From a virus: a stretch of DNA of 63,125 nucleotides. The DNA lies in UHGV virus genome UHGV-1373161, one strand, 5' to 3'. Below the pieces are notes generated by a model, which worked only from the letters and a program-made list of their open reading frames with translations, was not told the DNA's origin and did not search any database. A program made the position numbers and the translations under genes. The number at the start of each line of letters is the position of its first letter. Position 1 is the stretch's first letter. This document shows, piece after piece, positions 14,401 through 62,142 of the stretch.

Positions 14401-14490
14401 TTGCGCCTGCGGGCGCTGCGCCCAGTCAGGCAGGCCATAAGACGGCTGCTGGACAAGATCCAGCTCAGACGGCAAAGAGTTTTTAGCCAC
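2431..14490 (-). CDS. Giant multidomain virion/ejection protein (4019 aa): SLT lytic transglycosylase, ParB-like domain, DExH helicase, N6-adenine/N4-cytosine MTase, ART-fold-like segment, HExxH, and a C-terminal TM-containing domain; DarB-like core
   Basis: Single uninterrupted ORF starting at GTG with a GAGGA SD; N-terminal AEQESSFNP (SLT), DGHHQWLAA (ParBc), GTGTGKT and DESH (helicase), VLEPSAGHG and NPPF (MTase), HELFH; sits in the ejection-protein position of the virion module. Confidence 0.85.
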   Translation of the reverse strand: MAKNSLPSELDLVQQPSYGLPDWAQRPQAQTVSTGGAVPFQAEFLSASQKYGVPFNVLMGLAEQESSFNPTAIGVPTKYGRAKGLMQYIDSTASRMGINPYDPVQSIDAAARQLRERLDKGYSMQEAVQAHFGGDDRKQWGPKTAQYGKDVLGRAEKFLGGGQSVAAGQPTQQQDQPQTRMGQIAQDYPPAQSAMENLEQTRQRTQALLDEMNKEEPGRYRPLTDEEMQQLSQHITPEMQQQAMQSGKPIEINIPDLVQPGQAVTAQQSVTQQPQKQPEGNKDGNLFTDALALLDSGFNTAAKDVQELVGKIPYIGKPIVDAADRFDRWANGKSSQELFKAYDESVERRLSPEMLAARRKSFVIEPGDDLGDGKKATGYNFGPAWSDPRAYMSGILESLPEMALTMGGSGRLAQMAYRRALASGASREVAAKAAARTATVAGGILEGSLGGAQSSRQVREDILKMKPEQLANSDAMKSLMDGGLSFEQARAQLAENASSQAFMLAGISTGIFGGMGDRALAKIITNRAGGRLKAAMAGAIGEGVFEEMPQSATQQMSQNYAMQQADPNTPLMKGVANQAAGGLAVGGLMGAGMGAAAPRVSESNPADQTQEDSGSSIPTVKFEDNGPPPGYTGEWRDGGPVITITEGNGQSSTEQPQEVKPSGPLGRALQAGVQQTTEDVAAQAQQNTAAAENHTPDEFMGPVGAETMVIPSDDLESAFPAVVQEYRNGNAVVADQNGEILEFGPHEVVRPDAAADVVQQQPAQAVNEPAQQVEQATEEQPRQPKAVSEMTEPELRDRLKYLHQQAKSSGGWNERLTKARREVEKEIDAKNAPVQGEIDTEAVQANGLTPSENRHLKELLNKDSRTQAESAEATRLNEKSRASLTEEVPQSTSENTVGAEGMTLVHGSGNGNLTLDDIQIVRANGQKQGKKGRVYGGFYGTSEKDSAQAEGYAGMMEGTPTVYDVKIKPGTKVFQKEGDITRLSENTINDLVSKGYGVVVGTDPRGRTEYAVIDKNAIQGISQRGKTQEQVASNEEQNPTLNKDGSQKWFGTERKANEYLQKKGITGTHEIRLVDRRFEIHAKGQDGTLTNEGTTEKAAPSKGKNGPRYNRVKKLLGAEEGDIVTPQEDIGYTTAGRQYRVYQIEKNGIVHLTNLETNGGTTVSLADLERANSRRSGFNRVEAVAEPAPASQKQQQSATSQADSAQELRERANKPKKEQISDLSGNRFEHKGEPLPSKGLVVAAMGNDGAVYVGKKNSVHFQLSQKHPFSERGEWKREGFVNPEGQFLTRSEALTWANRNEGVIKPSENMEGELDAMDYREQAGRRPVESVAEAAPAAQEKQQTGQEWQAFDSESGTLGIPRAEMPQVKAEHRGPMVNFLAARGVTHREGMVPADTLKPTQAEFSPERVARARESNSDRSILVSSDGYVLDGHHQWLAAREKGDNVKAIVLDAPIRDLLPLVHEFPSSLVDTSSASETAKVEPKTAETASIQPKTESEQAKSAQYGASNKLVSQDRAAELRKKLKAKFSQLNSGLDPEILAIGTELAVFHIEAGVRKFADFARAMSADLDVPISRLRPYLRGWFNGARDIMEDSGISIEGMDSHETVRAELAKLDQAPVKEEAPAQTAPKAENQAPVNQPAPASQARSTGSLDDMVNAFDNEVTPNVSGIRTGMEPDSRNAADAVSGNENPVLDGSGRNNRSDEQPGQRAEQERGIGQRDQRVSADGAASRREPGNQPIHQPDGQFESEGRAAGGTERSGSRSDSTARSPVEQQRRRAIVDNAHAAGAGDLASRLKAQKAAKGAPTTWADKASIDAALPLLLPEQRGDVLKIEQRHQVATGVLSTNGTGTGKTATGLGAAKRFYNAGKKNIAIVVPTDKVASDWVKFAGMMDMPLRQLSGIDDAGGSGPIVTTYANFGQNDALYSRQWDLIIPDESHYLSSNANGDSTAALDKLRGLTGHPEGFQHWLIGNNKELHDELTEQRAILNKMNSAQAGYQAQEQKVNRLTEQWQAIEQPARREWQQRWAEQRDLPKVVFLSATPFAYVKNTDYAEGYLFHHTPPAERYTENSTGGYNSANDRERFYMEHFGYRMRYNKLTQPEAGVNTELMEQNFNQWLKDTGALFGRRLDVPFDYDRRFQLIDDAAGKKLDDALRFLNEAENGIYRPIYDEVMRTFDYQRRMFLLESMKARAAVPVIREHLKLGRKVVVFHDYNQGGGFSPFAEALAEMKDLDMRSTASELFQRPMFRINFSGLDSAINTIKKAFPNVLLFNGTVSKGKRRQNADFFNADNSGKNLILVQSDAGREGVSLHDTTGKHQRVEINLGMPTRPVAATQIEGRIYRTGQASDAIFRYMTTGTSWEASTFASKIAERAATAENLALGEEARGLKQSFIDAYNEAEPMQASREDGKGGKERDQALSQNITPFDKAKTFYWAQQKNTKRRDQREGQDYFATPEPVGLKMVEWANIKPGDKVLEPSAGHGAIARFFPAQSDVTMVEPSYDLSQRAALANGTARIINGRFEDLSRANKFDAIVMNPPFGTGGKTAYEHLAKAAKHLRQGGRLVALVPRGGISERRFDQFFGGDEAKGLDLVARIKMPWVTFERAGTKVATEVLVFERHDKSDGSIIPVRPDLSSAQTINELFDRIEGLTLPERQPLTADEAIANAADGTMYSVPGEVVSHQTDTPAFKRWFEGSKVVDENGNPQVMYHGTPEDFTVFNTADRLADGSARNPMNDNIGAFFTSDRPDAEDFSARNASSSAASNIHDVYLAIKNPLVFEDQAEFRSYLRKNSREDMEKAGYDGVIINDVYEEDRAYEFDPDSDEYLNGPKTRWAIAFSPEQVKSASRNNGNFDSSNPDIRFSIAAARESLTEGSIGSAAKELLDAGRLELHSAPPAPEFLSAGGWIDPDGKIHLALYNLRPEDVQPTLMHELFHAGMRNIGGDRRWVNLMDRLGQYYRAAQNGGAKNEWTAAVERIQNAQRQGDRMNDAARDHVIEELGAYAVENFEKMPAGIRKWAESIIGAVKNYLQQTFGLQLGKVTPGQLRALAAGAIRNQKAPATSTSFSTPESSHPPKAAEKQSWFNQRWDEVADLPDNMLKTVMPALLRFTPGRFILKRVGKDIPALGRYADVKLQMDTLRDEWHAKTDQESQKWLKYRVSKPQENAELMGLMHDSTLAQVDPSKDFQSILNAIDLTALREKKRGDPAWDEANQKAQDDAKRKEEHGKLRERYNALSPEGKQIYNRVRDLYSRLADAQEQAIIDNMEKAMDIRSRQVRRKFEDEMQRITDEGLKGKDKEDAIAAAKKALNNGLRKDAWNRRARINQLRSEFESNRLAGPYFPLARFGDFFVTARKKGSGEVVSFSRTETAFAQTRLRKQLEKEGYDVETGIVSKSNDLRKQVPADFVARIEDLLKGIEGTQQTQDQVWQLYLQTMPDYSLRKSRIHRKGRAGFEEDALRAFASHMFHGSHQLARMKYSMELGDLIDQAEREAKRTRSPVRSGLVVEQARMNHDYVMNPTSNRISQVATQGAFMWYLAQSPAAALVNMSQTFIVAPAKLAAFYDKGAAAGIPVALGYLNRAMFDLGMGRTFAEKSARVTPEEKRAVSEAYRMGLITRTQSHDVAGIGDSGVKYSPTRAKLMAAMSFMFHHTERINREATFLAAYRMAKKRGLDPKNAIRKAADLTWDSHYDYQNSSRPAIMHSNVGKTLLVFRNYSLNMLADLAYTAYEMINPRNKQERREARTQMLGLGATLAFNAGIRGLPLYGLLMAIAGMFSDDDEDPEVELKKTMLQYFPKQMVGIMMDGVPGYLSGVELSGRIGFGDLWFRSDDMDREGDSQFLYWAMQVLGASTGIPYNWYRGVSQINDGYTWRGIETMVPKAIKDPMKAWRYYSEGVTTKNGDPIVDDLDGWNIFKQAMGFTPAKVTEQYKMNSYNMNKQTAITEERSKLLGDFYKAWKAGDEKKVDQITDKMRAYSEKYPEMRIDGDAVRSSLTRREKYRGSALGGMNYNQKLVPRLQEEQPGTVYR
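5491..5853 (-). other. Domain candidate: HExxH zincin-like motif (LMHELFHAG), aa ~2880-3000
   Basis: Single HEXXH motif in a predicted helix; no third ligand identified. Confidence 0.3.
5941..6423 (-). other. Domain candidate: H-Y-E type NAD-utilising ART fold (diphtheria toxin/ExoA/PARP/Tpt1-like), aa ~2690-2850
   Basis: VMYHGTPEDF (compare DT SYHGTKPG, ExoA GYHGT), then IGAFFTSD 31 aa later (compare GFYSTDN/GFYIAGD), aromatic +11, downstream acidic cluster VFEDQ/YEEDRAYEFD. Confidence 0.35.
6691..7173 (-). other. Domain: amino-MTase (N6-adenine or N4-cytosine), aa ~2440-2600
   Basis: Motif I VLEPSAGHGAIA followed by motif IV NPPF. Confidence 0.7.
7441..9003 (-). other. Domain: SF2 DExH helicase (SNF2/ResIII-like), aa ~1830-2350
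   Basis: Walker A GTGTGKT, DESH box, C-terminal QSDAGREG motif VI-like. Confidence 0.65.
10111..10365 (-). other. Domain: ParB/Srx-like nuclease domain (ParBc), aa ~1376-1460
   Basis: LKPTQAEFSPERV (box I-like) and ILVSSDGYVLDGHHQWLAAREKG (GHHR-like box II). Confidence 0.6.
14086..14358 (-). other. Domain: soluble lytic transglycosylase (SLT), aa ~45-135 of the giant protein
   Basis: GVPFNVLMGLAEQESSFNP...GLMQYIDSTA, with catalytic Glu in the ES motif; same position as the LT in T7 gp16-type ejection proteins. Confidence 0.7.
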
Positions 14491-17662: not shown

Positions 17663-17673
17663 ACGTTTGCCCC

Positions 17674-17690
17674 GTTGCCCTTTTAGCAAC
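17674..17690. promoter_or_regulatory. 17-bp palindrome site H (GTTGCCcttttAGCAAC)
   Basis: Member of the recurrent GTTGCY-N5-RGCAAC family; overlaps the RBS region of the GNAT gene. Confidence 0.55.
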
Positions 17691-17728
17691 ATGATAGACA
17701 AAAGGGCAACGCACGACCATTACCAAGT

Positions 17729-33723: not shown

Positions 33724-33802
33724 AATGTGCCCTCAAGAACGTGCGGTGTGTCGGGATCGCCGCACGTCTTGCGCAGCATTACGTTTCGATTATCGAATGA
33801 CT

Positions 33803-33821
33803 GTTGCTGAAATGCAAACAC
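33803..33821. promoter_or_regulatory. Palindrome-family variant GTTGCTgaaatGCAAACAC upstream of the coat gene
   Basis: Shares 17 nt (GAAATGCAAACACTCA) with site 40586-40603 and the left arm with the GTTGCT-N5-AGCAAC family. Confidence 0.45.
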
Positions 33822-34031
33822 TCATGTCATGGCAATGGCTGTTTTGCTTGGAATGTCAACCTCCTGTTGCCCCTCTACAGCGCCGGGGCGCTTATCGCAG
33901 TGAATAATTACGCTTTCCGGCGCTTCGATTATAAAGCTGCACCGTTTACCGGCCTTCTTCACCATACGCACGGTTGCGTCGCCAATTTTCAGCACGTCGC
34001 CCTCGCGCAAATCGAATTTAAGTGCCCCCAC
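33822..34031 (-). CDS. CsrA-like small RNA-binding protein, 69 aa
   Basis: GTG start with AGGAG SD 8 nt upstream; aligns to CsrA: LREGDVLKIGDATVRMV..SFIIEAPESVIIH vs VGETLMIGDEVTVTV..RIGVNAPKEVSVH. Confidence 0.5.
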   Translation of the reverse strand: MGALKFDLREGDVLKIGDATVRMVKKAGKRCSFIIEAPESVIIHCDKRPGAVEGQQEVDIPSKTAIAMT

Positions 34032-34973: not shown

Positions 34974-37316
34974 TCACTGCTGGGGTTGTGGTTGAGGCAG
35001 GCCAGCGGGCTGCTGTTCCTGCTGTTGCTGCTGGGCGGCCTGTTCCTGCTGGGCCTGTTGCTCCTGCATAGCCTGCTGCTCGGCAGCGGCTTGCTGTTGC
35101 TGCTCGGCCTGCATCACTGCAGCCTGGCGGGCTTCTTCCTCGCCTTCTGTCCGCGAGAGGAAGCTGGATTCATGGAGAATGTTGTCTGCTACCGGAACGG
35201 CGGCAGGTTGTGACAGCGCCATAAGTGCGGCTTCCAGCGCAGCTTTTTGGGTATTGACGTTCTGACCGGCCATTGATGCGAGGATCTGCTGTGCCTGCGC
35301 CTGCTCTTTGCCAGCTGACGCGGCGTTTTTCTGCGCATTGCTCTGTTTGAGCGCGGCGTCCGCCTCGTCTTTGGCAATGGCGGCCAGCTGTGCCCGCTGC
35401 TGCAGCTCTGCCTGCGCCTGCTTGGCCTTCTCGGCGGCAATCTCTTCCGGGGTCGGCTCTTCGGCGTCCGGGTCGCGCATACCAGTGACCTGGCGGATAC
35501 GCTTAACCAGCTCTTCACGGCTGGTGATATCCATCCCTTCGACCAGAATATCCATCATGACCAGTGCCAGCTGCGGTGCTACCGGTGCCAGCTGCTGCAG
35601 CAGGCCGAAAAGCTCTTCGGTCTGCGCCTGGCGGATGGTATTACGCCAGTCTTCTTCGCCAATGACGAAATCAGCCTTCGAGCGAATGATATCATTGTCC
35701 GGATCCCCATCGTTGATGGTGATGTATTCCGGGGTATTGCGCATGTTCGTGATGCGGAATTGCTTCTCTTCGCTGTAGAACTGTTCGATGGCGGATAGCA
35801 GCTTCTCACCATGCACCTGGACGGCATAACGCAGGTTGTCGAAGATAAGCGCCGTAGCCAGACCGCCCTGCTCCTGGCGCGCCGTGATGGCCTTACCGCT
35901 TGATGCGTTCGTTTGGCGGCCCAGGTTCTCATCGGTGACGCCGGAAACCTGCTGAATCATGCCGATAGCTTGGCTCATCATTTGCAGGTGAGAGGCCGCA
36001 AGCTCACGGTCAGCGTTGATGATTAGCTCTTTGCCTTGTTTCTTGACGATAACGGCATCCGGCCGGGCAACCTCTTCCCTGAACTCGTCCAGATCGTCTA
36101 CAGCACCCTCGTCCATGATGGTTTTGTTCGTGGATATGATATGCAGCGCCTTACTGGCACGCTTATTGATATCTTCCTGCATGTCGCGCAGGTTACGGAT
36201 CACGCCATACGGCAGCTTGTCGCGACCACGGCGATAGCACCAGATAGGCGTAAACGGGTATGAGTTGTGCCGGTACGGGCTTGGTCCATCCCAAAGCATG
36301 CCACCGACGCAGAATATTGAGACGCGCATACGCATGGCGCGGGGAATAGTGACCGGATATCCTCGCTGAGCCTCAATGTCAGCCTGGTGGCCGGGTGCCG
36401 GGTCATCCGGGTCGTAGATCTCGCCGTTGAAGTCGCCACCGCGCATTTTTTCCACTTCTTCGGTGACTTTGTGCCAAGCCTCGATGATGCGGACCCGCTC
36501 GCGCTTGAAGGTGGTGACGGCATTGCGGTAGTGCGATGTCTCGTTGAGGCGTTCCTGGCTGTCGGAAGCGTCGTCTCCGTAGTCGTCGATCTCCCAGTCA
36601 TTGGCAGCGCGCGCACACATGCGCAGCAGTCCAGCACGGTCAGGGAACATCGCTTCGGCTACATCGAGATCCACCCACTTAAAGCGGAACACATAGCGGG
36701 CGTCTGACAGGTCCGGCTCTGTGCAGGCGCTATCCCACAGGATGTTTCGCCAGCTCTCGTAGCGGTCATAGACCGGCTCGCCGTCTTCAGGCTGCTGCAG
36801 GCCTTCTTCCATCCAGCCTACGCCTACCTTCGTGCAATCCTCAAAAGCCCGGCTGCGGTGGAATGGTGAGCGGTTGATGTCGCTCAGATACTTCATGAGC
36901 TGGGTCTTGCGCTCTGCGGCCTTACCGGCATCTTTCCGGCGCGGCAGGATTTTCCAGTCCGTGCGTCCGCGCTTTTCGGTGCCGATGATCCAGTTGATGC
37001 TGGTGGCAATGACGTTATAGACCAGCGGCACCTGCCCGCGCTCTCTCAGCGCTGCTGCGTCCTGCTCACGCCACTGGATGCCATCATAGAAATCTTCGTC
37101 CCTGGCCTGCTGCTGGCGGTTATCTGCCTGACGGGCCAGCTCATCCTGGAATATTCCCAGGAGGCGCGCATAGCGATTGACCATATCGGGATGGTCTAAT
37201 TCATGGTCGGGTTTCCCGCGCTCTTCCTCGCTGGCGTATGCTGCGTCTGGTAAGTCATCGAGCGGCACATGTCTGGCGTCGCGCAGGTCAAAGCCCGTAT
37301 CTGGTTTATCAAACAC
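34974..37316 (-). CDS. Portal protein, 780 aa, with long Gln-rich C-terminal helical extension
   Basis: Size and position after terL; C-terminal AAAEQQAMQEQQAQQEQ barrel-like tail as in P22-type portals. Confidence 0.7.
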   Translation of the reverse strand: MFDKPDTGFDLRDARHVPLDDLPDAAYASEEERGKPDHELDHPDMVNRYARLLGIFQDELARQADNRQQQARDEDFYDGIQWREQDAAALRERGQVPLVYNVIATSINWIIGTEKRGRTDWKILPRRKDAGKAAERKTQLMKYLSDINRSPFHRSRAFEDCTKVGVGWMEEGLQQPEDGEPVYDRYESWRNILWDSACTEPDLSDARYVFRFKWVDLDVAEAMFPDRAGLLRMCARAANDWEIDDYGDDASDSQERLNETSHYRNAVTTFKRERVRIIEAWHKVTEEVEKMRGGDFNGEIYDPDDPAPGHQADIEAQRGYPVTIPRAMRMRVSIFCVGGMLWDGPSPYRHNSYPFTPIWCYRRGRDKLPYGVIRNLRDMQEDINKRASKALHIISTNKTIMDEGAVDDLDEFREEVARPDAVIVKKQGKELIINADRELAASHLQMMSQAIGMIQQVSGVTDENLGRQTNASSGKAITARQEQGGLATALIFDNLRYAVQVHGEKLLSAIEQFYSEEKQFRITNMRNTPEYITINDGDPDNDIIRSKADFVIGEEDWRNTIRQAQTEELFGLLQQLAPVAPQLALVMMDILVEGMDITSREELVKRIRQVTGMRDPDAEEPTPEEIAAEKAKQAQAELQQRAQLAAIAKDEADAALKQSNAQKNAASAGKEQAQAQQILASMAGQNVNTQKAALEAALMALSQPAAVPVADNILHESSFLSRTEGEEEARQAAVMQAEQQQQAAAEQQAMQEQQAQQEQAAQQQQQEQQPAGLPQPQPQQ

Positions 37317-37740
37317 GTTCGATTACCTCAGAGTGATGGGTTTTCCCTGTGTCGTGGTCGGTGCGGAATGCATCTGCGACGACGACGCCGGTTGTCGGCT
37401 TGGGAGGGATAGCGATCAGGTCGCCCAGGTGGTCATGAATGAGGGTTACTATCTTCATGGCGGCGAACACGTTGCCGGTGTCCATGTTGTTCATATCGAG
37501 GAAGGCCATGCACATGACGCGGTTCAGTTGCGGCATTGCCTGGGGGTCTTCCGGGTTCCACTGCCAGGCGTCATCGAGGTCGATAATCAGCGGGCGGCAG
37601 CGGTCAGCACCGATGCGATAGGTTGGAACAACAACGAGGCACGGCTGATGCTCGACCCCGTACCATGTACCGTAAATGGTCAGATCCCCGCGCGTATGCA
37701 CGAAATGGTACTGAGTCAGGTCTAAAACGTGCTCTGCCAT
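37309..37740 (-). CDS. Hypothetical protein, 143 aa, between terL and portal
   Basis: ORF overlapping the portal start by 8 nt; palindrome site A just upstream. Confidence 0.4.
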   Translation of the reverse strand: MAEHVLDLTQYHFVHTRGDLTIYGTWYGVEHQPCLVVVPTYRIGADRCRPLIIDLDDAWQWNPEDPQAMPQLNRVMCMAFLDMNNMDTGNVFAAMKIVTLIHDHLGDLIAIPPKPTTGVVVADAFRTDHDTGKTHHSEVIERV

Positions 37741-37771
37741 GATTGCCCTCTGTTGCGTTTATGTCTTATGC

Positions 37772-37788
37772 GTTGCCAGTATAGCAAC
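37772..37788. promoter_or_regulatory. 17-bp palindrome site A (GTTGCCagtatAGCAACac)
   Basis: In the 53-nt gap between the terL stop and the 143-aa gene. Confidence 0.55.
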
Positions 37789-37793
37789 ACTTA

Positions 37794-40509: not shown

Positions 40510-40589
40510 AACGTGTCCTTGCGGGTTGACATATCCGCATGCATCGGGAATCGCTCCCGGATCGCTTTGTTGCGATTGTAGAAACAGGG

Positions 40590-43078: not shown

Positions 43079-43956
43079 TCTCTGCCCTCCCGCTCCCTCA
43101 GCATGCGGATAGCTTCATCGGCGGCATTCGCGTTGGTTTGAGTGCTGTCAATCTGGCGGGCGCGGCCAGCGGTCATTGTCCGGCCAGTGATCCACTGGGT
43201 GCGGTATACCTCGGCGTCTTTCACCAGAAGCTCCAGCGTGTGCATGCGGCGAATGACATAGGACTCATTCACGTTCTGGACGTAGAAGCGGGCAACGCCG
43301 GGCGCTTCCTTGCCCAGCCGCTTAATCAGCTCCTTCACATGCGTGTTGGTTTTGGCATTGCGCGGGAAGGTGGTGCCGTAGCGTGTCAGGTATGCAGCGT
43401 CGAACCACTCCCAAAAGACTTCCCGGATCCGTTCGTAGCTGGGGCCGTTGTTCCTTTCGTCGTGCTGTTGCTGTTCCGACAACACTGCAGGCACGTTAAA
43501 ACCACCAGCGGCCGGGGCGGGATTTCCCGCACCGGTTAAAGGTTCACTTCCTGGTTCTACTTCCTGGTTAATATTACTGTTTTGTAGCTCACTGTGAACC
43601 GACCCGTCAGCCGTCTGTGACCCTACCACTCCCCCTGATTTTGAACCTACCCCAGTCTTTTTCTGAACTGGGTGGGTTCTCTGTGAACTGACGTCAAGAT
43701 GCAGGTGATACTGGTTCGGCAGACTGACGCCGTTTAGCTCTCTGTGCTCGATGGTCAGCAGGCCAGCAGCCTCCAGTTTCTCGATGCAGCGCTTCAACGT
43801 TGACAGGCTCATGCCGCATTCGCGCGCCAGGCGCTTATGTGCCGGATCGCAGCGCCCGGTATCGTGGTTGCAGCGGTTGGCCAGCATCACCAGCACGATT
43901 TTCTCGTTTGCCTTCAGCTCCTGCTCGGTGGCCCATGTCATTGCCTGGAAGCTCAT
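43075..43956 (-). CDS. Replication initiator/replisome organiser (O-like) with N-terminal winged HTH
   Basis: N-term KIVLVMLANRCNHDTGRCDPAHKRLARECGMSLSTLKRCIEKLEAAGLL is the phage replisome-organiser N-terminal pattern. Confidence 0.5.
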   Translation of the reverse strand: MSFQAMTWATEQELKANEKIVLVMLANRCNHDTGRCDPAHKRLARECGMSLSTLKRCIEKLEAAGLLTIEHRELNGVSLPNQYHLHLDVSSQRTHPVQKKTGVGSKSGGVVGSQTADGSVHSELQNSNINQEVEPGSEPLTGAGNPAPAAGGFNVPAVLSEQQQHDERNNGPSYERIREVFWEWFDAAYLTRYGTTFPRNAKTNTHVKELIKRLGKEAPGVARFYVQNVNESYVIRRMHTLELLVKDAEVYRTQWITGRTMTAGRARQIDSTQTNANAADEAIRMLREREGRE

Positions 43957-44426
43957 ATCACCCCCGACAAGTTCAGCTCAGGGATCAGCGCCTCCTTGCG
44001 ACCGGCGGCCACAACGCCGTAGCCAGTCTCGAAGAAGCTCAATCGGCCTTTCAACGGCTGGAAAGGCAGCGGCTTCGAGCCGGAAAGCTGGAAGCCTACC
44101 GGGCCAAAGAACCAGGGCGACGCGCTTTCGCGTGTGGTGCCGGTGATGTGCGTATAGCCGACGATGCCGCCGCGCTCGATCCCTTTGTGCCCAGGCCAGT
44201 TTTGCGGCACGCTGAAATCGTTCCAGCTGGGGAAATTTACATCGTAGAGCTTGTTTTTCAGCAGAATGTCGATTACCGCGCGGTGGTCATCCATCGACGG
44301 CTTTGCTGCGCTGGCGTGGATCAGAACCGCGCCGCGATACTTCGTGTCCCAGCTCCGGTTCTCAATGTCCTTAAAGCCGTTGACGATGAGCCACGCCCAG
44401 GGCTGGCGGATGGAGATTGCTTTCAT
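43953..44426 (-). CDS. ASCH-domain protein
   Basis: MKAISIRQPWAWLIVNGFKDIENRSW is the ASCH signature. Confidence 0.6.
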   Translation of the reverse strand: MKAISIRQPWAWLIVNGFKDIENRSWDTKYRGAVLIHASAAKPSMDDHRAVIDILLKNKLYDVNFPSWNDFSVPQNWPGHKGIERGGIVGYTHITGTTRESASPWFFGPVGFQLSGSKPLPFQPLKGRLSFFETGYGVVAAGRKEALIPELNLSGVI

Positions 44427-44782
44427 AGGCGCACCCCCTTCATGAACGCAGCTCTGAAACGATCCTGGTCAACCTTGACCGTGTTGCTAAGTGGATCGTC
44501 GTACAGGCAGGCCAGCAGCGCGTCGTATTTTTCCTTCTGCTGACGCATAGGATCCGGCCCCATGCAAGGCTCAGAAGCAGCCTTTCCACCGAGCATGGCC
44601 CCACAACTCATGCACTGCTCACCACCGAAATACGTGCGGTGCGAACGGTGTGCTTTCGGAATGGATTTCTCTCGAAGTGAGTTTTCCTCCATCCAAAGGC
44701 GAATTTCATACAGCCTAAGCTCCAGCCCATATATTTTCTCACGCATTTTCCGGCGCTGGTTTCGACCAAATCGTTTGCTCAT
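44423..44782 (-). CDS. Hypothetical Cys-containing protein, 119 aa
   Basis: CMSCGAM...CMGPDP; palindrome site B about 60 nt upstream. Confidence 0.4.
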   Translation of the reverse strand: MSKRFGRNQRRKMREKIYGLELRLYEIRLWMEENSLREKSIPKAHRSHRTYFGGEQCMSCGAMLGGKAASEPCMGPDPMRQQKEKYDALLACLYDDPLSNTVKVDQDRFRAAFMKGVRL

Positions 44783-44828: not shown

Positions 44829-46421
44829 TTATTCAGTTGCTGTAATAGCAACACTAGCCGCGTGAATAGCTGAAAGGATCCTGTTTCCTATCCAGCGCAT
44901 CACGGGTACTGCCATTGAATTTCCAATAGCCTTGTAGCGAGGCCCGTCAGCCGCCAGGCGGTGAGCTTCCTCCGCCGTCATGTTCGGGAAATGGTGGCGC
45001 AGGTACGCGTATTCCTCAGCGGTGATCTGCTTGCGCTTCTCTGTAGGGATTAGTGTGTGGTTATCCGGGAATCCCTGAAGGCGCTCGCACTCCACTGGCG
45101 TTAGGCGACGAACTGCCATCTGATGGGAAACAGCTATCCCTTGTGCCGTGTCGAGTGTGTGAGTGATGTTCTCCTGGACGCCCCAGCCATTACTGCTTGT
45201 GTTAGCTGTGCGGATGCCGTAGGCAATGTGTGGAAACTGGTCACTCATTCCTCTGCCGTGGTCAGATTTCAGCGTCGGGAAGACTTCTTCGCTCGGAGCC
45301 GCTCCAGCGGCTCTAGTGCAGTTTCCAGGCTGGAATGCAACCGCCAGCGTCTCATGGTCTGCGCCAGATTTTGCGCGTAGAGCACTCACTCCAGGTGCAA
45401 AAGAAGCGTGTCCGTTACTGCTGAACACAATCGAAACTATCTGCTGCTCACTAATCCCTTTGGCACAATGCAATGTATTTGCCATATCACCTGTCAACTG
45501 AATGCCAGAACCCCGCGTATCTCCCCTGGTGTCAGTAAAGCAACTGGCGACAATCGGCGCTTCGTGGTTGCAGGTGAGCGTAGGCGCGGAATCGTCCGTT
45601 TTAATCTCGGCTCCGCCCTGTCCGTGCGCCATTGCAATCAGGTGTCCTGCTTGTCCCCGGTTATCGTCTGCGCTACGGACTCCAATGCAGTTTGAAGTAA
45701 GGGGGGAAGCTGCCTTCCCCGCGCTTCTGCTCGGCGCAATATCCCGGCGCACGCCATCGGACTCAAAAAGTATTTTGGTGGGATCAATATCGGTTCGAGC
45801 ACTTGCGACAACAAACACACGGCGGCGTCGTTGGGCCACTCCGAAATATTGGGCATCAAGGATCCGCCACGCGATTGTTCTTTTGGGGCCGCGCACATAA
45901 CCAGCGTTCTCCCAGCGCTTCCCTGGTGGTTGTAGCTCACAGTCTTCGCCGGCAAGCAGTCCAAGGAAGGCTCCGAAAGCGTTATCTTTTGAGCTGAGGA
46001 CTCCGGGAACGTTTTCCCAGACGATAATAGCTGGTGGAATTCCTGCTGCTGCTCTGCGGTCGTCGATGGCATCCGCTAATTCTCCGTATGAAATAGTGAG
46101 TTGACCGCGAGGGTCTGAAAGGCCAGCGCGAGCACCGGCCACAGAAAACGCCTGGCATGGCGTGCCGCCGACAAGGATATCCGGCGCGTCCATTTCCCCT
46201 GCGCGCATTTTGGCGGCGAGTTTGGTCATGTCGCCCAGGTTGGGCACTTCAGGCCAGTGGTGCGCCAGAACGGCAGACGGAAAGTCAGGGCCGTTTTTGT
46301 ATTTGTGCTCAGGATCGAACTGAGAGAACCATGCCGGGCTAAAGCCCAGCACTTCCCACGCCACGCTGGCCGCTTCGATGCCGCTGCACACAGAGCCATA
46401 ACTTATCGTGTTGCTTGTCAC
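44829..46421 (-). CDS. DNA cytosine-5 methyltransferase (Dcm-like)
   Basis: GTPCQAFSVAG (motif IV), IVWENV (motif VI), QRRRRVFVV (motif VIII); GTG start at 46421 overlapping the upstream TGA stop, GGAGGG SD. Confidence 0.75.
   Translation of the reverse strand: MTSNTISYGSVCSGIEAASVAWEVLGFSPAWFSQFDPEHKYKNGPDFPSAVLAHHWPEVPNLGDMTKLAAKMRAGEMDAPDILVGGTPCQAFSVAGARAGLSDPRGQLTISYGELADAIDDRRAAAGIPPAIIVWENVPGVLSSKDNAFGAFLGLLAGEDCELQPPGKRWENAGYVRGPKRTIAWRILDAQYFGVAQRRRRVFVVASARTDIDPTKILFESDGVRRDIAPSRSAGKAASPLTSNCIGVRSADDNRGQAGHLIAMAHGQGGAEIKTDDSAPTLTCNHEAPIVASCFTDTRGDTRGSGIQLTGDMANTLHCAKGISEQQIVSIVFSSNGHASFAPGVSALRAKSGADHETLAVAFQPGNCTRAAGAAPSEEVFPTLKSDHGRGMSDQFPHIAYGIRTANTSSNGWGVQENITHTLDTAQGIAVSHQMAVRRLTPVECERLQGFPDNHTLIPTEKRKQITAEEYAYLRHHFPNMTAEEAHRLAADGPRYKAIGNSMAVPVMRWIGNRILSAIHAASVAITATE
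44836..44852. promoter_or_regulatory. 17-bp palindrome site B (GTTGCTgtaatAGCAACac), perfect arms
   Basis: In the 46-nt gap between the dcm stop and the next gene. Confidence 0.6.
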
Positions 46422-46990
46422 TCTTCTGTGCCCTCCGTTGCCGAAACAGCAACACTCTTCCCGCACTTAGGGCAGAACTTCACGCCGTTCTCTTCCGGGC
46501 CGTCTTCCATGAACTGGAATTGATAGCCGCAATCGCTGTGCCAGTTGTTTATGTCTTCTTCGCAGTGCCAAGTGCAGCTATCCGGAATTACCGGAGAGTT
46601 GCCAGGATGGACCGGACACGGCCAGCGCAGTGAACCATCGCCGCTGGGGCAGGTGCAAACAGGAGCTACCGGCGCTGGCTGTGCGTTAGCCGCCGAGCGG
46701 AGCCGGAATGGCAAGTCGAACCACACACCTGCACCTGTCCTGTCTTTAGTGGTAAGCAGGTCTTCAATTGCTGATGCCGCCGTATGAAGCAGGTCTGCGC
46801 TGACTACCGGCGCTGGCGGATAATTTGCCAGCTCGGGCTGAAGCGCCACCGGATAGCTGCCCACTGAGGCCACCAGCTGCCGCAGCGCTTCCAGATAAAA
46901 CTGCTCTTTAAGCGATAGCTCGCCAGCAGATTCCAGGGCCGCGATACGCTCTTTCACTGCTTCTGGTGTGATTTTAATTGTCATCGCCAA
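46418..46990 (-). CDS. Hypothetical protein with C-terminal zinc-ribbon (CPxCG), 190 aa
   Basis: C-term FCPKCGKSV and CTCPSGDG cysteine clusters. Confidence 0.45.
   Translation of the reverse strand: MAMTIKITPEAVKERIAALESAGELSLKEQFYLEALRQLVASVGSYPVALQPELANYPPAPVVSADLLHTAASAIEDLLTTKDRTGAGVWFDLPFRLRSAANAQPAPVAPVCTCPSGDGSLRWPCPVHPGNSPVIPDSCTWHCEEDINNWHSDCGYQFQFMEDGPEENGVKFCPKCGKSVAVSATEGTEE
46437..46453. promoter_or_regulatory. 17-bp palindrome site C (GTTGCCgaaacAGCAACac)
   Basis: Lies within the last codons of the 190-aa gene, 16-32 nt upstream of the dcm start. Confidence 0.55.
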
Positions 46991-48849: not shown

Positions 48850-48900
48850 GAACATTCCCTATCGCCTTACGGCGAATCATATTGCTAATCTGCACCGCGC

Positions 48901-48917
48901 GTTGCTAAAACAGCAAC
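48901..48917. promoter_or_regulatory. 17-bp palindrome site D (GTTGCTaaaacAGCAACac), perfect arms
   Basis: In the 70-nt gap between the HNH gene stop and the next gene. Confidence 0.6.
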
Positions 48918-48926
48918 ACCGTGCGC

Positions 48927-51046: not shown

Positions 51047-51187
51047 TTAGCCTTTACGGCTGCATTTTTTCACGATGGCGCGGCGAATTTCCGCATCGCG
51101 CTCGTCAGAACGCCCACTGAAGTAGCCGATAGCGAAAAATACGGCCGCCACAGTCATGCACAGGGCAAATATGCTATCTCCGCTCAT
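51047..51187 (-). CDS. Small single-TM protein, 46 aa, downstream of cro, not in the ORF track
   Basis: ATG overlaps the cro stop (ATGA); MSGDSIFALCMTVAAVFFAIGYFSGRSDERDAEIRRAIVKKCSRKG. Confidence 0.25.
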   Translation of the reverse strand: MSGDSIFALCMTVAAVFFAIGYFSGRSDERDAEIRRAIVKKCSRKG

Positions 51188-51468
51188 TTCTTCACCTCAT
51201 TGACTTCTGGTGTACCAGGCGAAAGAAGAGCCACAGCCTCAGCAAGTAATTTCCTTGCCTTAGTCACGGCATCATCTTTCTCCCCGTAAGTTTCAAGAAC
51301 CAGAAGACGCAGCGAATCCGTCAGTATCTTCTGCCCGCTTTCAATCCGGCATCCCGTACCTTTCGATACGTGGATGGCCTCCCAGAAATCACGCTGAGAA
51401 ATGCCCTTCTCTTTGCGGTACTGCCGCAGCGTGATCGGGGTGATGTCGTTAATCGATTTAAAAGTCAT
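51184..51468 (-). CDS. Cro-like lytic regulator (XRE HTH), 94 aa
   Basis: Start MTFKSINDITPITLRQYRKEKGISQRDFWEAIHVSKGTGCRIESGQ (HTH_3); divergent from the CI-like gene. Confidence 0.6.
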   Translation of the reverse strand: MTFKSINDITPITLRQYRKEKGISQRDFWEAIHVSKGTGCRIESGQKILTDSLRLLVLETYGEKDDAVTKARKLLAEAVALLSPGTPEVNEVKK

Positions 51469-51481
51469 ATTGCCTCGCCGT

Positions 51482-51530
51482 GTTGTCCTCATAGCAACTA
51501 TGTTGGCAAAAAATAATGCCAAAAGCAAAC
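51482..51530. promoter_or_regulatory. Immunity-region operator cluster: GTTGtcctcatAGCAAC, GTTGGC-N11-GCCAAA, GCAAAC, AGCAACGCAAC half-sites
   Basis: 129-nt divergent cI/cro intergenic region carrying degenerate versions of the genome-wide palindrome. Confidence 0.5.
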
Positions 51531-51597
51531 GCATGATTGCAATTTAGCAACGCAACGGGTAGGAACGTGATCCAAAGTGAAGTACCGGGAGGCGCGT

Positions 51598-52194
51598 ATG
51601 CCTGTGAACAAAAAATATTTTGACGACCTGATGAAAGACCGCCGGATCTCCCTTCGGGCCATCGCCAGGGAAATGAACTGCTCACCGTCACAGCTCTCCA
51701 GAACGTTCGGCGGGTACCGGCGCATGCAGCTGGCAGAAGCCGCAACCATCGCCAGAATGCTCGGCGTACCGGTGGTTGAGGTCATGGTGAATGCCGGTAT
51801 CGAGGAAGTGCGGGGTGAGCGGAAGTACGCCAAAGTGATCGGCTTCCTGAAAGGGGATTTGACCGTCTCCCCTGTCCCTGATGACGTTCGGGAACGGGTG
51901 CCACTTCCGATAGCAGACCTGCCGCCGGATACCGTCGCCATCCAGGCCCGCACAGCGAATACGCCGTTCTCCTTTCTGGATGGATGGGTGTTCTTTGTCG
52001 GCCCAAGGGTGGATGCCAGCGACGAGATCGGCAGCTACTGCGTGGCGCACGTCGAGGGCGGAGACAAGATAATCGGCACGCTTTCGAAGGGCTATCAGCG
52101 CGGGACATACAACGTCACCGGCGCGGCGGGCATCGCAAGGCAGAGTATGAAAGTCGATTGGGTTCGTAGGATTTATTTCACGCAACACGCCTAA
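51598..52194 (+). CDS. CI-like repressor (N-terminal XRE HTH, C-terminal oligomerisation domain, no S24 motif)
   Basis: GGGAGG SD; ISLRAIAREMNCSPSQLSRTFGG HTH; no GDSM/Ser-Lys autoprotease signature. Confidence 0.55.
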   Translation: MPVNKKYFDDLMKDRRISLRAIAREMNCSPSQLSRTFGGYRRMQLAEAATIARMLGVPVVEVMVNAGIEEVRGERKYAKVIGFLKGDLTVSPVPDDVRERVPLPIADLPPDTVAIQARTANTPFSFLDGWVFFVGPRVDASDEIGSYCVAHVEGGDKIIGTLSKGYQRGTYNVTGAAGIARQSMKVDWVRRIYFTQHA

Positions 52195-52217
52195 AAGTGT
52201 TGCCGTTCTCAAATATA

Positions 52218-52235
52218 TTGTTCTAATATAGCAAC
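52218..52235. promoter_or_regulatory. Palindrome-family half-site ATTGTTctaatatAGCAACac downstream of cI
   Basis: Right arm AGCAACAC perfect, left arm degenerate; upstream of the 52295 gene. Confidence 0.35.
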
Positions 52236-52294
52236 ACAGGATTGCAGCGGTTAAATGATGACCGCTCACATAATCACCGTCAAAAGGGGGATTT

Positions 52295-52618
52295 ATGCCG
52301 CAAGGTGCGCGGCGCTGGACCGACGAGGAAAAGGCCTGGTTGGCCTCCAATGCTCACCGGTTCTCTGCTGAATACATCGGGCTGCGCCTGAAGCGCACAG
52401 CAGAGGGCGTAAGATGCAAAGCAGAGCGGATGGGCGTCCGCTTTACCCGGTGGCCAGACGAAGATATCCGCTTCTTACGCAAGAATGCAGCGCGGATGAC
52501 AGCGAGAGAAATAGCCGACGCGCTGGGGAAAGATAAAGGTCAGGTTGTTTATAAAGCGAAGACGGAAGGTATCCTCTTCGGACCAACACGCAGAAAATTC
52601 ACCGCCCTACAGGGCTAA
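52295..52618 (+). CDS. Hypothetical protein, 107 aa (possible SANT/Myb-like DNA-binding)
   Basis: WTDEEKAWLASNAHRF... Confidence 0.4.
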   Translation: MPQGARRWTDEEKAWLASNAHRFSAEYIGLRLKRTAEGVRCKAERMGVRFTRWPDEDIRFLRKNAARMTAREIADALGKDKGQVVYKAKTEGILFGPTRRKFTALQG

Positions 52619-52626
52619 GGAAAGGT

Positions 52627-53151
52627 ATGAACGTTAATGAACTTCCGCAGTACAAATGCCATAAGGTAGTTCGCGCTGGCAAGATTCTTGCGACCGCCCG
52701 CAACCCCAATGAAGATGCCATTTTTCTTGATGTTGATGGGGTGGTTAATAAATGGCTTTTTGCGCCAACTGGGTGGCTTAATAAACATAACCCGGATATT
52801 GGCGGCTATCTCGTGGCTTATGAGGACGGATATCTGTCCTACTCACCGGCGGCGGCCTTTGAGGCTGGCTATTCGCTCATCATCGACAAAGATAGCAATG
52901 GAACCGTGCTCGCGCAGAAAGCGGACGGAACGGAAACCCTCACCTTCCAGGACAGCACGCGTCCGGCATGGCAGCAGCGCTTACTGGAAGAGAAGAACGA
53001 GCTGAACGGGCGCATTCACAAACTTTCTGACTATATCGCTGGGCCTGTCTTCCGGGTTCTTCTGCCCGCTGACCAGCGCCTGCTGTCGGTGCAGCTGTCC
53101 ACAATGAAGGCTTTATCCGAAGTGCTGGAGCTTCGGGCGGCGCGCTTCTGA
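52627..53151 (+). CDS. Hypothetical protein, 174 aa
   Basis: ORF track; C-terminal coiled coil. Confidence 0.4.
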   Translation: MNVNELPQYKCHKVVRAGKILATARNPNEDAIFLDVDGVVNKWLFAPTGWLNKHNPDIGGYLVAYEDGYLSYSPAAAFEAGYSLIIDKDSNGTVLAQKADGTETLTFQDSTRPAWQQRLLEEKNELNGRIHKLSDYIAGPVFRVLLPADQRLLSVQLSTMKALSEVLELRAARF

Positions 53152-58301: not shown

Positions 58302-58361
58302 TAGGATGGTGGGGAAGTTCACGCTTCCCCCTTTTCAGACTGTTTCGCCCTTGTTAATACC

Positions 58362-58378
58362 GTTGCTGAAACAGCAAC
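58362..58378. promoter_or_regulatory. 17-bp palindrome site F (GTTGCTgaaacAGCAACag), perfect arms
   Basis: Ends 14 nt upstream of the AlpA/Xis-like start; followed directly by the AGGAG SD. Confidence 0.6.
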
Positions 58379-58392
58379 AGGAGCGAATCAGG

Positions 58393-58599
58393 ATGAGCAA
58401 GAAAAGGTATCTCACGCAGGACGAAGTAGCAGACCGGTACCGGGGGCTGATTTCAGTCAGAACGCTTTGCAATTGGAGATCGCTTCGCATTGGCCCCCCT
58501 TATTGCAAAATCGGAAAGACGGTTCTCTACGACGAAGCAGAGCTGGACGCGTGGGATCAACGTAATACCGTTAAATGCGCACCATCGGTGCGGGAGTAA
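58393..58599 (+). CDS. AlpA/Vis/excisionase-like HTH protein, 68 aa
   Basis: MSKKRYLTQDEVADRYRGLISVRTLCNWR...GKTVLYDEAELDAW fits the HTH_17 (AlpA/Xis) pattern; typical partner of P4-type integrases. Confidence 0.5.
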   Translation: MSKKRYLTQDEVADRYRGLISVRTLCNWRSLRIGPPYCKIGKTVLYDEAELDAWDQRNTVKCAPSVRE

Positions 58600-60876: not shown

Positions 60877-62142
60877 ATGCCAGCACTCACAGATGGACAG
60901 ATAAAAAACGCGCTGAAGCGCGTCGCCAAATCGCAGAAACCTGAAACCCTGGCCGACGGCGAAGGGCGCGGCACCGGCCGCCTTGTGCTGGTCATTAAGC
61001 CTATGCCGACCCGCGTCACGTCGAACTGGTTCGCGCAGCAGTGGCTGGAGGGGAAGCGCAAACTGAAGAAGCTGGGCGAATACCCGCACATGAGCCTGGC
61101 GGACGCCCGCGAGGTGTTCACCCGCGACTTTTCCGCCGCCATCAATAAGGGGGCATCGATCAAGGTCCAGGGCGACACCCGGCCCGGCACCGTGGGCGAC
61201 CTGTTCGAAGGCTACGCCGACTGGCTGCGGGACAGCGGCAAAATGAGCCACAAAGAGGCCAGGAAAGGCCTGAACAAGATTGCCGACGAGCTGGGCCGCA
61301 ACCGGCTGGCGCGCGACATCGAGCCGATTGACGTGCTGAACGTCCTGCGCCCCATCTATGAGCGCGGGAAGAAGGCTATGGCTGACCACGTGCGCAGCTA
61401 CGTGCGCAGCGCCTACAGCTGGGGCATGAAGAGCGAGAACGACTATCGATCCACCAGCCCCAGGCGGTTCAACCTGGTGAGCAACCCGGCAGCTGGGATC
61501 CCCACCGAACCGAAGAAGCCGGGCGAGCGCTGGCTGCGTGAAGAGGAATGGGTGAAGATGTGGCGCTGGTTACAAAATCCTGACGTGGCTATCCATCCCT
61601 CCTATCCCCGCGCCATCATGCTGCTGATGCTGACCGGCCAGCGCGTGCAAGAGATTTGCACCCTGCACGTTGACCAGTACGACCGCGATGAAGGCATGAT
61701 CGACTGGTCAAAGACGAAGAACGGGAAGCCTCATGCCATCCCCCTGCCCGGCCTGGCCATCGAGCTGCTGAACAGCCTCACGCCGAATGAGCATGGCTGG
61801 TTTTTCCCCGGCAGTAAGGATCCGTCGCTCTCGGTCCAGCACCAGACGCTCTATTCCTTCCTGTGGCGGCAGCGCGACCGGGGCGTTATCCCGCACGTCA
61901 CGAACCGCGACATGCGCCGCACCTGGAAGACCCTGGCGGGCAAGGCCGGACTGACGAAAGAGATCCGCGACCGGCTGCAGAACCACACCCTGCAGGACGT
62001 ATCGAGCAAGAGCTATGACCGGTACAGCTATATCTCGGAGAAGCGCGAGGCGATGGAGATTTGGGATAAGTTCGTGCGGGAAATGATCCGTGATAAGACA
62101 CCGCCAAGGCTGACGGTTATCGCCGGAACGGAAGCAGCATAA
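60877..62142 (+). CDS. int: Tyrosine integrase, P4-type (N-terminal DUF4102-like arm-binding domain)
   Basis: N-term TDGQIKNALK...GRGTGRLVLVIKP; catalytic region with conserved R/H/R and the Tyr-bearing KSYDRYSY segment; 421 aa. Confidence 0.85.
   Translation: MPALTDGQIKNALKRVAKSQKPETLADGEGRGTGRLVLVIKPMPTRVTSNWFAQQWLEGKRKLKKLGEYPHMSLADAREVFTRDFSAAINKGASIKVQGDTRPGTVGDLFEGYADWLRDSGKMSHKEARKGLNKIADELGRNRLARDIEPIDVLNVLRPIYERGKKAMADHVRSYVRSAYSWGMKSENDYRSTSPRRFNLVSNPAAGIPTEPKKPGERWLREEEWVKMWRWLQNPDVAIHPSYPRAIMLLMLTGQRVQEICTLHVDQYDRDEGMIDWSKTKNGKPHAIPLPGLAIELLNSLTPNEHGWFFPGSKDPSLSVQHQTLYSFLWRQRDRGVIPHVTNRDMRRTWKTLAGKAGLTKEIRDRLQNHTLQDVSSKSYDRYSYISEKREAMEIWDKFVREMIRDKTPPRLTVIAGTEAA

Follow-up and report, generated by a model that had tools for sequence, protein, structure and literature searches.

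The short region between the divergent repressor and cro genes of the virus genome UHGV-1373161 raises the question of whether the operators of an immunity switch can belong to a sequence family that is spread over a whole phage genome and, if so, which protein reads them. The window analysed here (63,125 nucleotides, nt) is, judging from its sequence, the complete genome (63 kb) of a Lastavirus-like Klebsiella phage, with an immunity region 93-95% identical to those of the Klebsiella phages SopranoGao, vB_KpnP_ZX1 (ZX1), LASTA and SJM3, which belong to the genus Lastavirus. The gap in question (51469-51597, 129 nt) extends from the ATG of the Cro-like gene (51468, minus strand) to that of the CI-like gene (51598, plus strand). 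An earlier note on this DNA had proposed that half-sites in the gap are degenerate copies of a dispersed palindrome, GTTGCT-N5-AGCAAC, and that the CI-like and/or the Cro-like protein recognises the dispersed copies. At the level of sequence, this proposal is supported by a matrix blind to the switch region, by the synteny of the sites and by their covariation with the recognition helix of CI. The dispersed palindrome is best read as the 19-mer TGTTGCY-N5-RGCAACA, which is probably the operator of the immunity proteins, that is, of a lambda-fold CI and probably also of an RsaL-like Cro, acting at dispersed promoters.

The switch region belongs to a dispersed palindrome family

When the window was scanned without bias for all 5-mer inverted repeats separated by 0-14 nt, GTTGC-N7-GCAAC ranked at the top as the sole outlier, with 6 copies observed vs 0.094 expected (P ~1e-9). 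Over the whole genome, the longer form GTTGCT-N5-AGCAAC was present in 3 exact copies (0.01 expected) and, when up to two mismatches were allowed, in 15 copies (2.95 expected). At least 10 dispersed copies of the family found in the switch region were kept in the sequences of relatives.

A symmetrised 19-mer matrix was trained on 10 dispersed copies (starting at 2247, 17673, 33802, 37771, 40568, 43466, 44835, 46436, 48900 and 58361), leaving out the switch region, and all 63,107 positions were scanned with it. Seven matches outside the training set scored 12.9 or higher (24719, 10924, 10483, 22808, 52218, 51481 and 51534), the first three of them being intragenic. Two of the seven are in the CI/cro gap, at 51481-51499 (score 14.9, rank 15) and 51534-51552 (score 12.9, rank 17), and another one, at 52218-52236 (rank 14), follows closely on the CI stop. 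When the 129-nt gap was shuffled 20,000 times with its dinucleotides preserved, a maximum of at least 14.9 was reached with P = 0.0018 and two matches of at least 12.9 with P = 5e-5, whereas shuffles of the 100-nt gap past CI gave P = 0.0008 for the site found there. Therefore, the switch sites are members of the dispersed family, because they are recovered by a matrix that was never trained on them.

The palindrome frame is kept in related phages

A search with the portal protein retrieved podophages of around 60 kb that encode a giant virion protein, namely Serratia phage Parlo, Erwinia phages PEp14 and Pavtok, Pseudomonas phage Itty13 and Bcep22-like phages. When the same unbiased scan was applied to three of them, it returned TGTTT-N9-AAACA in Parlo (4 observed vs 0.036 expected), TGTT-N11-AACA in PEp14 (7 vs 0.62) and GTTT-N9-AAAC in Itty13 (6 vs 0.10), so that a common 19-mer frame, TGTTnnn-N5-nnnAACA, is found in all. 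Each of these three phages has copies in the CI/cro gap and directly past the CI stop, and the gaps of Parlo and Itty13 hold two copies each, 34 bp apart. The junctions where sites are common to the window, Parlo, PEp14 and Itty13 are those of terS, of the CsrA-like and capsid genes, after terL, and of the GNAT, lysis, O-like replication and Xis-like genes.

Eight further lineages (L017 to L024), including metagenomic ones, were found through their CI homologues, and 11-21 kb around CI were recovered in each. The pattern of gap, post-CI and dispersed sites was repeated in seven of the eight, L020 being the exception. Sites syntenic with that past the CI stop of the window were detected in Parlo, PEp14, Itty13, L017, L019, L021, L023 and L024. 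A search of IMG/VR with a neighbouring protein matched SopranoGao and LASTA only, and no matches were obtained in the E. coli genomes searched. Neither operators nor palindromes are mentioned in the published accounts of LASTA/SJM3, ZX1 and JC1.

Organization of the switch region

The region has the layout of a lambda-type switch, with divergent repressor and cro genes that both encode helix-turn-helix (HTH) domains and a short gap between them. The four strings that the earlier note had quoted from this gap are all present (GTTGTCCTCATAGCAAC at 51482-51498, GTTGGC at 51502-51507 with GCCAAA at 51518-51523, GCAAAC at 51525-51530 and AGCAACGCAAC at 51546-51556), although GTTGGC and GCCAAA are 10 nt apart and not 11. 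As members of the family, GTTGTCCTCATAGCAAC holds and so does AGCAAC, with TGATTGC as its left partner, whereas GTTGGC and GCCAAA do not form a palindromic member. GTTGGC forms the left arm of another site (O2), one that is perfectly palindromic in relatives, but its apparent partner TGCCAA is probably fortuitous. The candidate TTGGCA-N8-TGCCAA was discarded as a separate operator, its dyad being broken in SopranoGao and LASTA (TGCTAA). GCAAAC had to be given up as a half-site, for it sits in an invariant box, AAAA(G/T)CAA, which is better read as the -35 element of the cro promoter.

Three putative operators were thus delimited in the gap (O1 to O3, Table 1). O1, located 13 nt 5' of the cro ATG, spans about -6 to +13 of the predicted cro promoter; it is kept in SopranoGao and LASTA and aligns with equivalent sites in nine lineages. 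O2 lies at a distance of 20 bp from O1, has a good left half and a degenerate right half, and overlaps the predicted extended -10 of the cro promoter. It aligns with the perfect palindromes TGTTTGC-ATAAC-GCAAACA of L021 and TGTTTGC-ATTAT-GCAAACG of L023. O3, which in all lineages is conserved better than any other block of the gap, overlaps the predicted -35 of the CI promoter (TTGCAA, 51537-51542) with the geometry of the dispersed units described below.

Two promoters are proposed for the gap because their hexamers are conserved across lineages. The cro promoter would run leftward from TTGCTT (51528-51523) through a 17-nt spacer to TGC-CAACAT (51508-51500), and the cI promoter rightward from TTGCAA through a 17-nt spacer to TAGGAA (51560-51565). 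Columns A57-59, C61, A62 and A63 of the gap alignment, which belong to the box with the cro -35, were invariant across 10 lineages, and an alternative cro promoter (TTGCAA-N18-CATTAT) was less conserved. A stringent sigma-70 scan of the cI/cro gap returned no promoters.

On the other side of the CI gene, the half-site GTTGCC supplies a -35 (TTGCCG, 52200-52205), which is separated by an 18-nt spacer from the -10 TAATAT (52224-52229) contained in the 19-mer TTGTTCT-AATAT-AGCAACA (52218-52236). This module faces the rightward early operon, which starts at 52295. The cI gene would thus be flanked by operators as in lambda, because this fourth copy, past the cI stop, covers the early rightward promoter. 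In their position, overlapping predicted promoters on both sides of cI, the sites resemble OL and OR of lambda.

Paired sites in promoter-like units

When the window was compared with SopranoGao and LASTA, 1 substitution was counted in 190 core half-site bases and 7 in 95 bases of the central 5 bp (P = 0.002). The arms are therefore more conserved than the centre, which fits an HTH dimer that touches the arms and not the centre. Around 70 strong sites from 11 genomes, matrix scores were raised only at +/-20 bp and at +/-34 bp, the latter offset corresponding to the site pairs of the CI/cro gaps. At +/-20 bp, 11 positions scored above 0 vs about 0.14 expected, and the 'third half-site' that accompanies many palindromes at 20 bp belongs to a weaker 19-mer nearby, of which it is the distal half and which can be on either side. 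A plus-strand orientation bias, considered as a packaging or injection signal, was explained instead by the tandem-site reading.

In the orientation of the gene downstream, the two sites make up a promoter-like unit, with the TTGC of the first as a -35, an 18-bp spacer and a -10 at the centre of the other, and the strong palindrome may be either member of the pair. The -10 hexamers stand at fixed offsets across four genera, with TACAAT at terS in 4/4 and GATAAT at the capsid gene in 4/4. In total, promoter-like hexamers are overlapped by the sites in at least 4-7 of 11 cases. Silencing in the lysogen is the best reading of these putative operators, because the sites extend over -38 to +1 of sigma-70-like promoters.

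Individual units are conserved in detail. The lysis -10 is kept as TATAAT in Parlo and PEp14 and as TAGAAT in Itty13, and the capsid layout palindrome-N7-GATAAT-C-GNAAC is found in all four genera (4/4). The terS 19-mer, including its ACAAT centre, recurs unchanged or almost unchanged in Parlo, PEp14 and Itty13, the GNAT site is syntenic in the same three phages, and that of the Xis-like gene is syntenic in Parlo, PEp14, L017, L022 and L024.

Table 1. Immunity genes, putative operators and dispersed family sites in the window
Feature	Coordinates	Strand	Evidence or layout
Cro-like gene, 94 amino acids, RsaL-like HTH	51184..51468	-	Pfam HTH_92 E=2e-11, gene calls
O1, TGTTGTC-CTCAT-AGCAACT	51481..51499	.	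Matrix rank 15, shuffle P = 0.0018
O2, TGTTGGC-AAAAA-ATAATGC	51501..51519	.	Homology by alignment
Invariant box AAAAGCAA	51521..51528	-	Minus-strand TTGCTT, predicted -35 of cro promoter; contains GCAAAC
O3, TGATTGC-AATTT-AGCAACG	51534..51552	.	Matrix rank 17; family matrix score 15.9
CI-like repressor gene, 198 amino acids	51598..52194	+	Pfam HTH_26, HTH_31
Putative operator/promoter module past CI stop	52199..52236	+	Matrix rank 14, shuffle P = 0.0008
Site 5' of lysis cassette	2247..2265	-	-35 in palindrome, -10 TAAAAT, distal half-site GAAAC
Site 11 nt 5' of GNAT acetyltransferase ATG (17662)	17673..17691	-	Half-site GGCAAC 17705-17710
Site between CsrA-like and major capsid genes	33802..33820	-	-10 GATAAT (33789-33794), distal half-site CGAAAC
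Site after terL, 5' of gene 37309-37740	37771..37789	-	Distal half-site GCAAC (plus GTTGC) 37752-37756
Site 5' of terS	40568..40586	-	Upstream half-site TGTTTGCA as -35; -10 TACAAT in palindrome centre
Site within O-like replication initiator gene	43466..43484	-	Same place in Parlo, PEp14, L017, L018, L019, L024
Site at downstream end of C5-methyltransferase cassette, 5' of gene 44423-44782	44835..44853	-	
Site at upstream end of C5-methyltransferase cassette	46436..46454	-	
Site 5' of MT-A70 methylase operon, adjoining inserted HNH endonuclease gene	48900..48918	-	
Site 14 nt 5' of Xis-like HTH_17 gene ATG (58393)	58361..58379	+	

CI as the probable reader of the sites

The CI-like protein consists of an N-terminal HTH of the Cro/C1 type and a C-terminal beta domain like those of lambda CI and LexA. 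Its AlphaFold model (predicted local distance difference test, pLDDT, of 89) was matched by Foldseek to lambda repressor 7jvt (E=1e-7), 2ho0 and 8gmu, and to LexA 1jhe, so in the model CI has the two-domain fold of lambda repressor. An alignment of 19 CI sequences contained no invariant Ser or Lys beyond residue 70, judged from sequence, and DGW is found at the expected place of a GDSM-like motif. As there is no conserved Ser/Lys pair, induction is probably not by self-cleavage. An annotated anti-repressor is encoded by ZX1.

The flavour of the half-sites is specific to each lineage, common to its switch and dispersed sites, and follows helix 3 of CI across the 12 lineages. Where helix 3 reads SPSQLSRT (window, L024, L018, L017) the dominant triplet is GCT/GCC; it is GTC with WPAALSRS or WPAGLSRA (PEp14, L022, L019) and TGC/TCG with LPSQLSLT (Parlo, Itty13, L021, L023). 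In L020, with GHSQLSLT, the sites are too few to define a triplet. The proportion of G at half-site position 5 was 0.79, 0.79, 0.80, 0.40, 0.59, 0.67 and 0.56 in the seven lineages with Arg, and 0.37, 0.15, 0.21, 0.19 and 0 in the five with Leu, with zero overlap between the two groups. A contact of this Arg with the G would be a sensible chemical reading.

Several observations weigh against CI operators at every site. The helix classes largely coincide with clades and therefore represent no more than two or three independent changes. The recognition helix of Cro also varies, with Arg in the window, L024, L018 and PEp14, and Cro alone could read the dispersed sites. O2 by itself obtained no matrix score as a site, its support being homology. 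Four of the 11 modules (43466, 44835, 46436 and 58361) show no convincing -10, and these may be weak promoters or stoperator-like roadblocks. In L020 (9883-10000), a distant lineage where CI is kept and a 63-amino-acid protein of the AlpA family takes the position of Cro, only two family matches were found in 20 kb, with no clear dispersed motif; either its CI could read a diverged site, or the dispersed sites could be tied to Cro and not to CI. The CI-side gap of L020 contains three direct repeats of TGGTTCG with a spacing of 10 bp. Lastly, a hairpin that follows the capsid and lysis promoters, described below, hints at a separate, additional layer of late control.

Alternative readers and functions

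It is unlikely, on balance, that the dispersed sites are read by Cro only, or with Cro as a modulator or activator of the lytic phase, leaving to CI the switch and the post-CI site. The recognition helix of Cro does differ between lineages with different site flavour, but Arg or its absence in Cro splits the lineages less cleanly (0.67 in L019 and 0.56 in L022 vs 0.59 in PEp14), whereas the Arg and Leu classes of CI split them without overlap. CI and Cro co-vary across the lineages and are not cleanly separable. The scarcity of family matches in L020, with a CI and an AlpA-type protein instead of Cro, would agree with reading by Cro, as would the retention of every site in LASTA, which lacks an intact CI; the deletion of CI in LASTA is, however, probably recent. 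Moreover, the placement of sites over -35 to +1 of strong promoters agrees with repression during lysogeny, a state in which no Cro is produced.

A further phage factor, such as the Xis-like HTH_17 protein or an unrecognised late regulator, could bind the dispersed palindromes, the switch copies then representing cross-talk. The Xis-like protein (58393-58599) is far more conserved among the window, Parlo and PEp14 (79-93% identity) than the portal (~60%) or CI (40-48%), a perfect site stands directly 5' of its gene in these three genomes, and a palindrome placed between a -35 and a -10 that are 18 bp apart recalls MerR-type activators. This alternative is nonetheless highly improbable: tblastn found no homologue of the Xis-like protein in Itty13, which has 13 family matches at syntenic places, and the site flavour differs between phages with near-identical Xis-like proteins, whose sequence hardly changes where the flavour does. 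The Xis-like protein was therefore rejected as the binder.

We also give very little credit to the absence of any dedicated regulator, in which case the repeats would be promoter elements (with TTGC as the -35), RNA hairpins at operon junctions or sites for a host factor. The half-sites hold TTGC and several copies lie 11-14 nt 5' of start codons, so an RNA hairpin is conceivable, but such elements would not account for a strict 19-bp dyad whose arms are conserved around a variable, A/T-rich centre, for a neighbouring site 20 bp away or for a flavour shared with the switch region. A 6-bp stem is weak, no T-runs follow the sites, a terminator scan of 51100-52400 was empty at the sites and an Rfam search gave no match in the window; terminators and known RNA families were ruled out on the missing T-runs and Rfam match. 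To our knowledge, the 19-mer does not resemble the consensus sequences of LexA, PurR or Cra, which counts against a host factor.

That the sites are recombination joints bounding exchangeable cassettes, as attC-like or boundary sequences, is scarcely credible despite the variable C5-methylase cassette between two of them (44853-46436, compared with SopranoGao and LASTA) and the HNH gene inserted beside site 48900. Of 84 BLAST breakpoints between the window and SopranoGao/LASTA, only 4 map to within 30 nt of a site (1.3 expected, P = 0.04), a weak excess that is more readily explained as a side effect of short conserved sequences; the majority of the mosaic joints are at other places and a dedicated recombinase is not evident.

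Proposed mechanism

With CI, and probably Cro, as readers of the 19-mer, the switch would work as follows. O1 and O2 would cover the -10 and the start of the cro promoter, and O3 the -35 of the cI promoter. Throughout the genome, a strong site and a weaker neighbour exactly 20 bp away would lie around two helical turns apart, and in the lysogen dimers would bind such pairs co-operatively. Bound dimers would occlude RNA polymerase or, where a promoter is not evident, block elongation, and late genes would be silenced directly, without a cascade. Binding, co-operativity, repression and the shares of CI and Cro at the dispersed sites are what we infer from these sequences, and direct control of each downstream gene is suggested by the position of its site.

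More doubtfully, Lastavirus, Parlovirus, Pavtokvirus, Ittyvirus and their relatives may share a 'flat' plan, in which a single lambda-fold repressor would act on tandem 19-bp operators in every major promoter, that is, in those for early left, early right, replication, packaging, capsid, tail, lysis and excision functions, all of this taken as one joint and tentative claim. If true, such a plan would silence late genes directly, with no need to withhold a late activator or antiterminator, and each promoter-operator unit would serve as a transferable module, placing newly gained cassettes under immunity control.

LASTA and SJM3 have a CI gene with an internal deletion. Both phages are experimentally virulent (PMC10052179). 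In LASTA, the deletion (corresponding to 51607-52055 of the window) joins ATGCCTGTG to GGGCGGCGACAAGATAAT, the integrase is also truncated and all operator copies are kept. The deletion of CI and the truncated integrase fit the virulent lifestyle.

Gene layout and neighbouring features

Genes on the minus strand extend from cro (51468) to the lysis cassette (~366) and comprise early, replication, methylase, terS/terL, portal, capsid and tail genes, the gene for a 4019-amino-acid PLxRFG protein and the lysis genes. The Cro-like gene, the first of this long leftward operon, is homologous to the genes in cro position of Parlo, Itty13 and PEp14. Plus-strand genes extend from CI (51598) to the integrase (60877-62142). 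In the rightward early operon (52627-53151 and downstream, plus strand), matches to Sequestin and WDGH domains, recently described anti-defence families, were found, and the related loci gave Tad2-like and Acb2/Tad1 anti-defence matches.

An HNH endonuclease gene (PF13392, 48927-49463, minus strand) adjoins site 48900 and is absent from this place in SopranoGao, LASTA and ZX1; it is probably a mobile insertion of the homing type. The gene for a 545-amino-acid C5 cytosine methyltransferase is flanked by two site copies (44835-46454). SopranoGao has no such cassette and a single hybrid site at 45240, and in LASTA a shorter methylase is found instead.

Two of the intragenic 19-mers resembling the motif (10483-10501 and 10924-10942) are 441 bp apart within the open reading frame of the PLxRFG protein (2431-14490). 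Both have GTTGC 20 bp upstream and their flanks are alike, so the pair may be a repeated coding segment instead of operators. The same reading frame is annotated as PLxRFG/DarB-like in relatives and not as a polymerase, and hairpin promoters for an N4-type virion RNA polymerase were discarded.

A leader hairpin, GCTGCGCAAGACGTGCGGCG (also given as GCGCAAGACGTGCGG), is present in exactly two copies, at 2199-2213 and 33760-33774 on the minus strand, each about 14 nt downstream of the predicted start of the lysis or the capsid promoter. Parlo, PEp14 and Itty13 have it at corresponding places, where a T-run often comes next and gives it a terminator-like look. The hairpin may act in antitermination or in the manner of boxB, or else be recognised by the CsrA-like protein of the phage, whose gene (33822-34031) is located just 5' of the capsid promoter.

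Comparison with known immunity systems

The switch region resembles those of lambda, 434 and P22 in its divergent repressor and cro genes and in a CI with an HTH N-domain and a LexA-like C-domain. As in lambda, about three putative dyad operators of 17-19 bp would lie over two back-to-back promoters (here the promoters are predicted and O2 is assigned by homology), an extra putative operator/promoter is placed on the far side of cI, and neighbours around two turns apart suggest co-operative dimers. That CI and Cro may bind common operators with opposite preference, as in a lambda-type switch, is hinted at by both recognition helices varying with the site flavour. Unlike in lambda, at least 10 more copies are spread over the genome and are found at late-gene promoters as well, not only at OL and OR; the C-domain lacks a conserved Ser/Lys pair, and Cro is an RsaL-like HTH_92 protein.

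If this reading is true, it would provide a regulatory map for a phage group otherwise largely unannotated, which includes Klebsiella phages under consideration for therapy (LASTA, SJM3, ZX1), and would explain virulence after the loss of one gene, CI in LASTA. The conserved sites would also make the sequence-based prediction of immunity groups practical.

Genome-wide immunity operators are already known from P1 and from cluster A mycobacteriophages. The C1 operators of P1 control genes of diverse function, and P1 late genes are controlled via Lpa and not directly. For P1, 22 dispersed C1 operators are reported, asymmetric 17-mers with the consensus ATTGCTCTAATAAATTT (PMC8546580). As with C1 of P1, many copies of the switch-region family are spread over the present genome, although here they are 19-bp dyads and the repressor has the predicted fold of lambda CI. 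In cluster A mycobacteriophages the stoperators are asymmetric, mostly located off promoters, and their motif tracks the divergence of the repressor (PMC6550527; PMC9283540). The sites described here are like those of L5 and Bxb1 in being at gene junctions throughout the genome with a motif that varies by lineage; they differ in being symmetric, in forming 20-bp pairs and, for several of them, in lying in promoter-like sequences, whereas stoperators are oriented with transcription and bound by monomers. What sets the present case apart, as far as sequence can tell, is the combination of a dimeric lambda-fold repressor with paired, promoter-embedded dyads, apparently at late promoters as well. 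If true, it would be a third, mechanistically distinct system of genome-wide immunity operators beside those of P1 and the cluster A mycobacteriophages.

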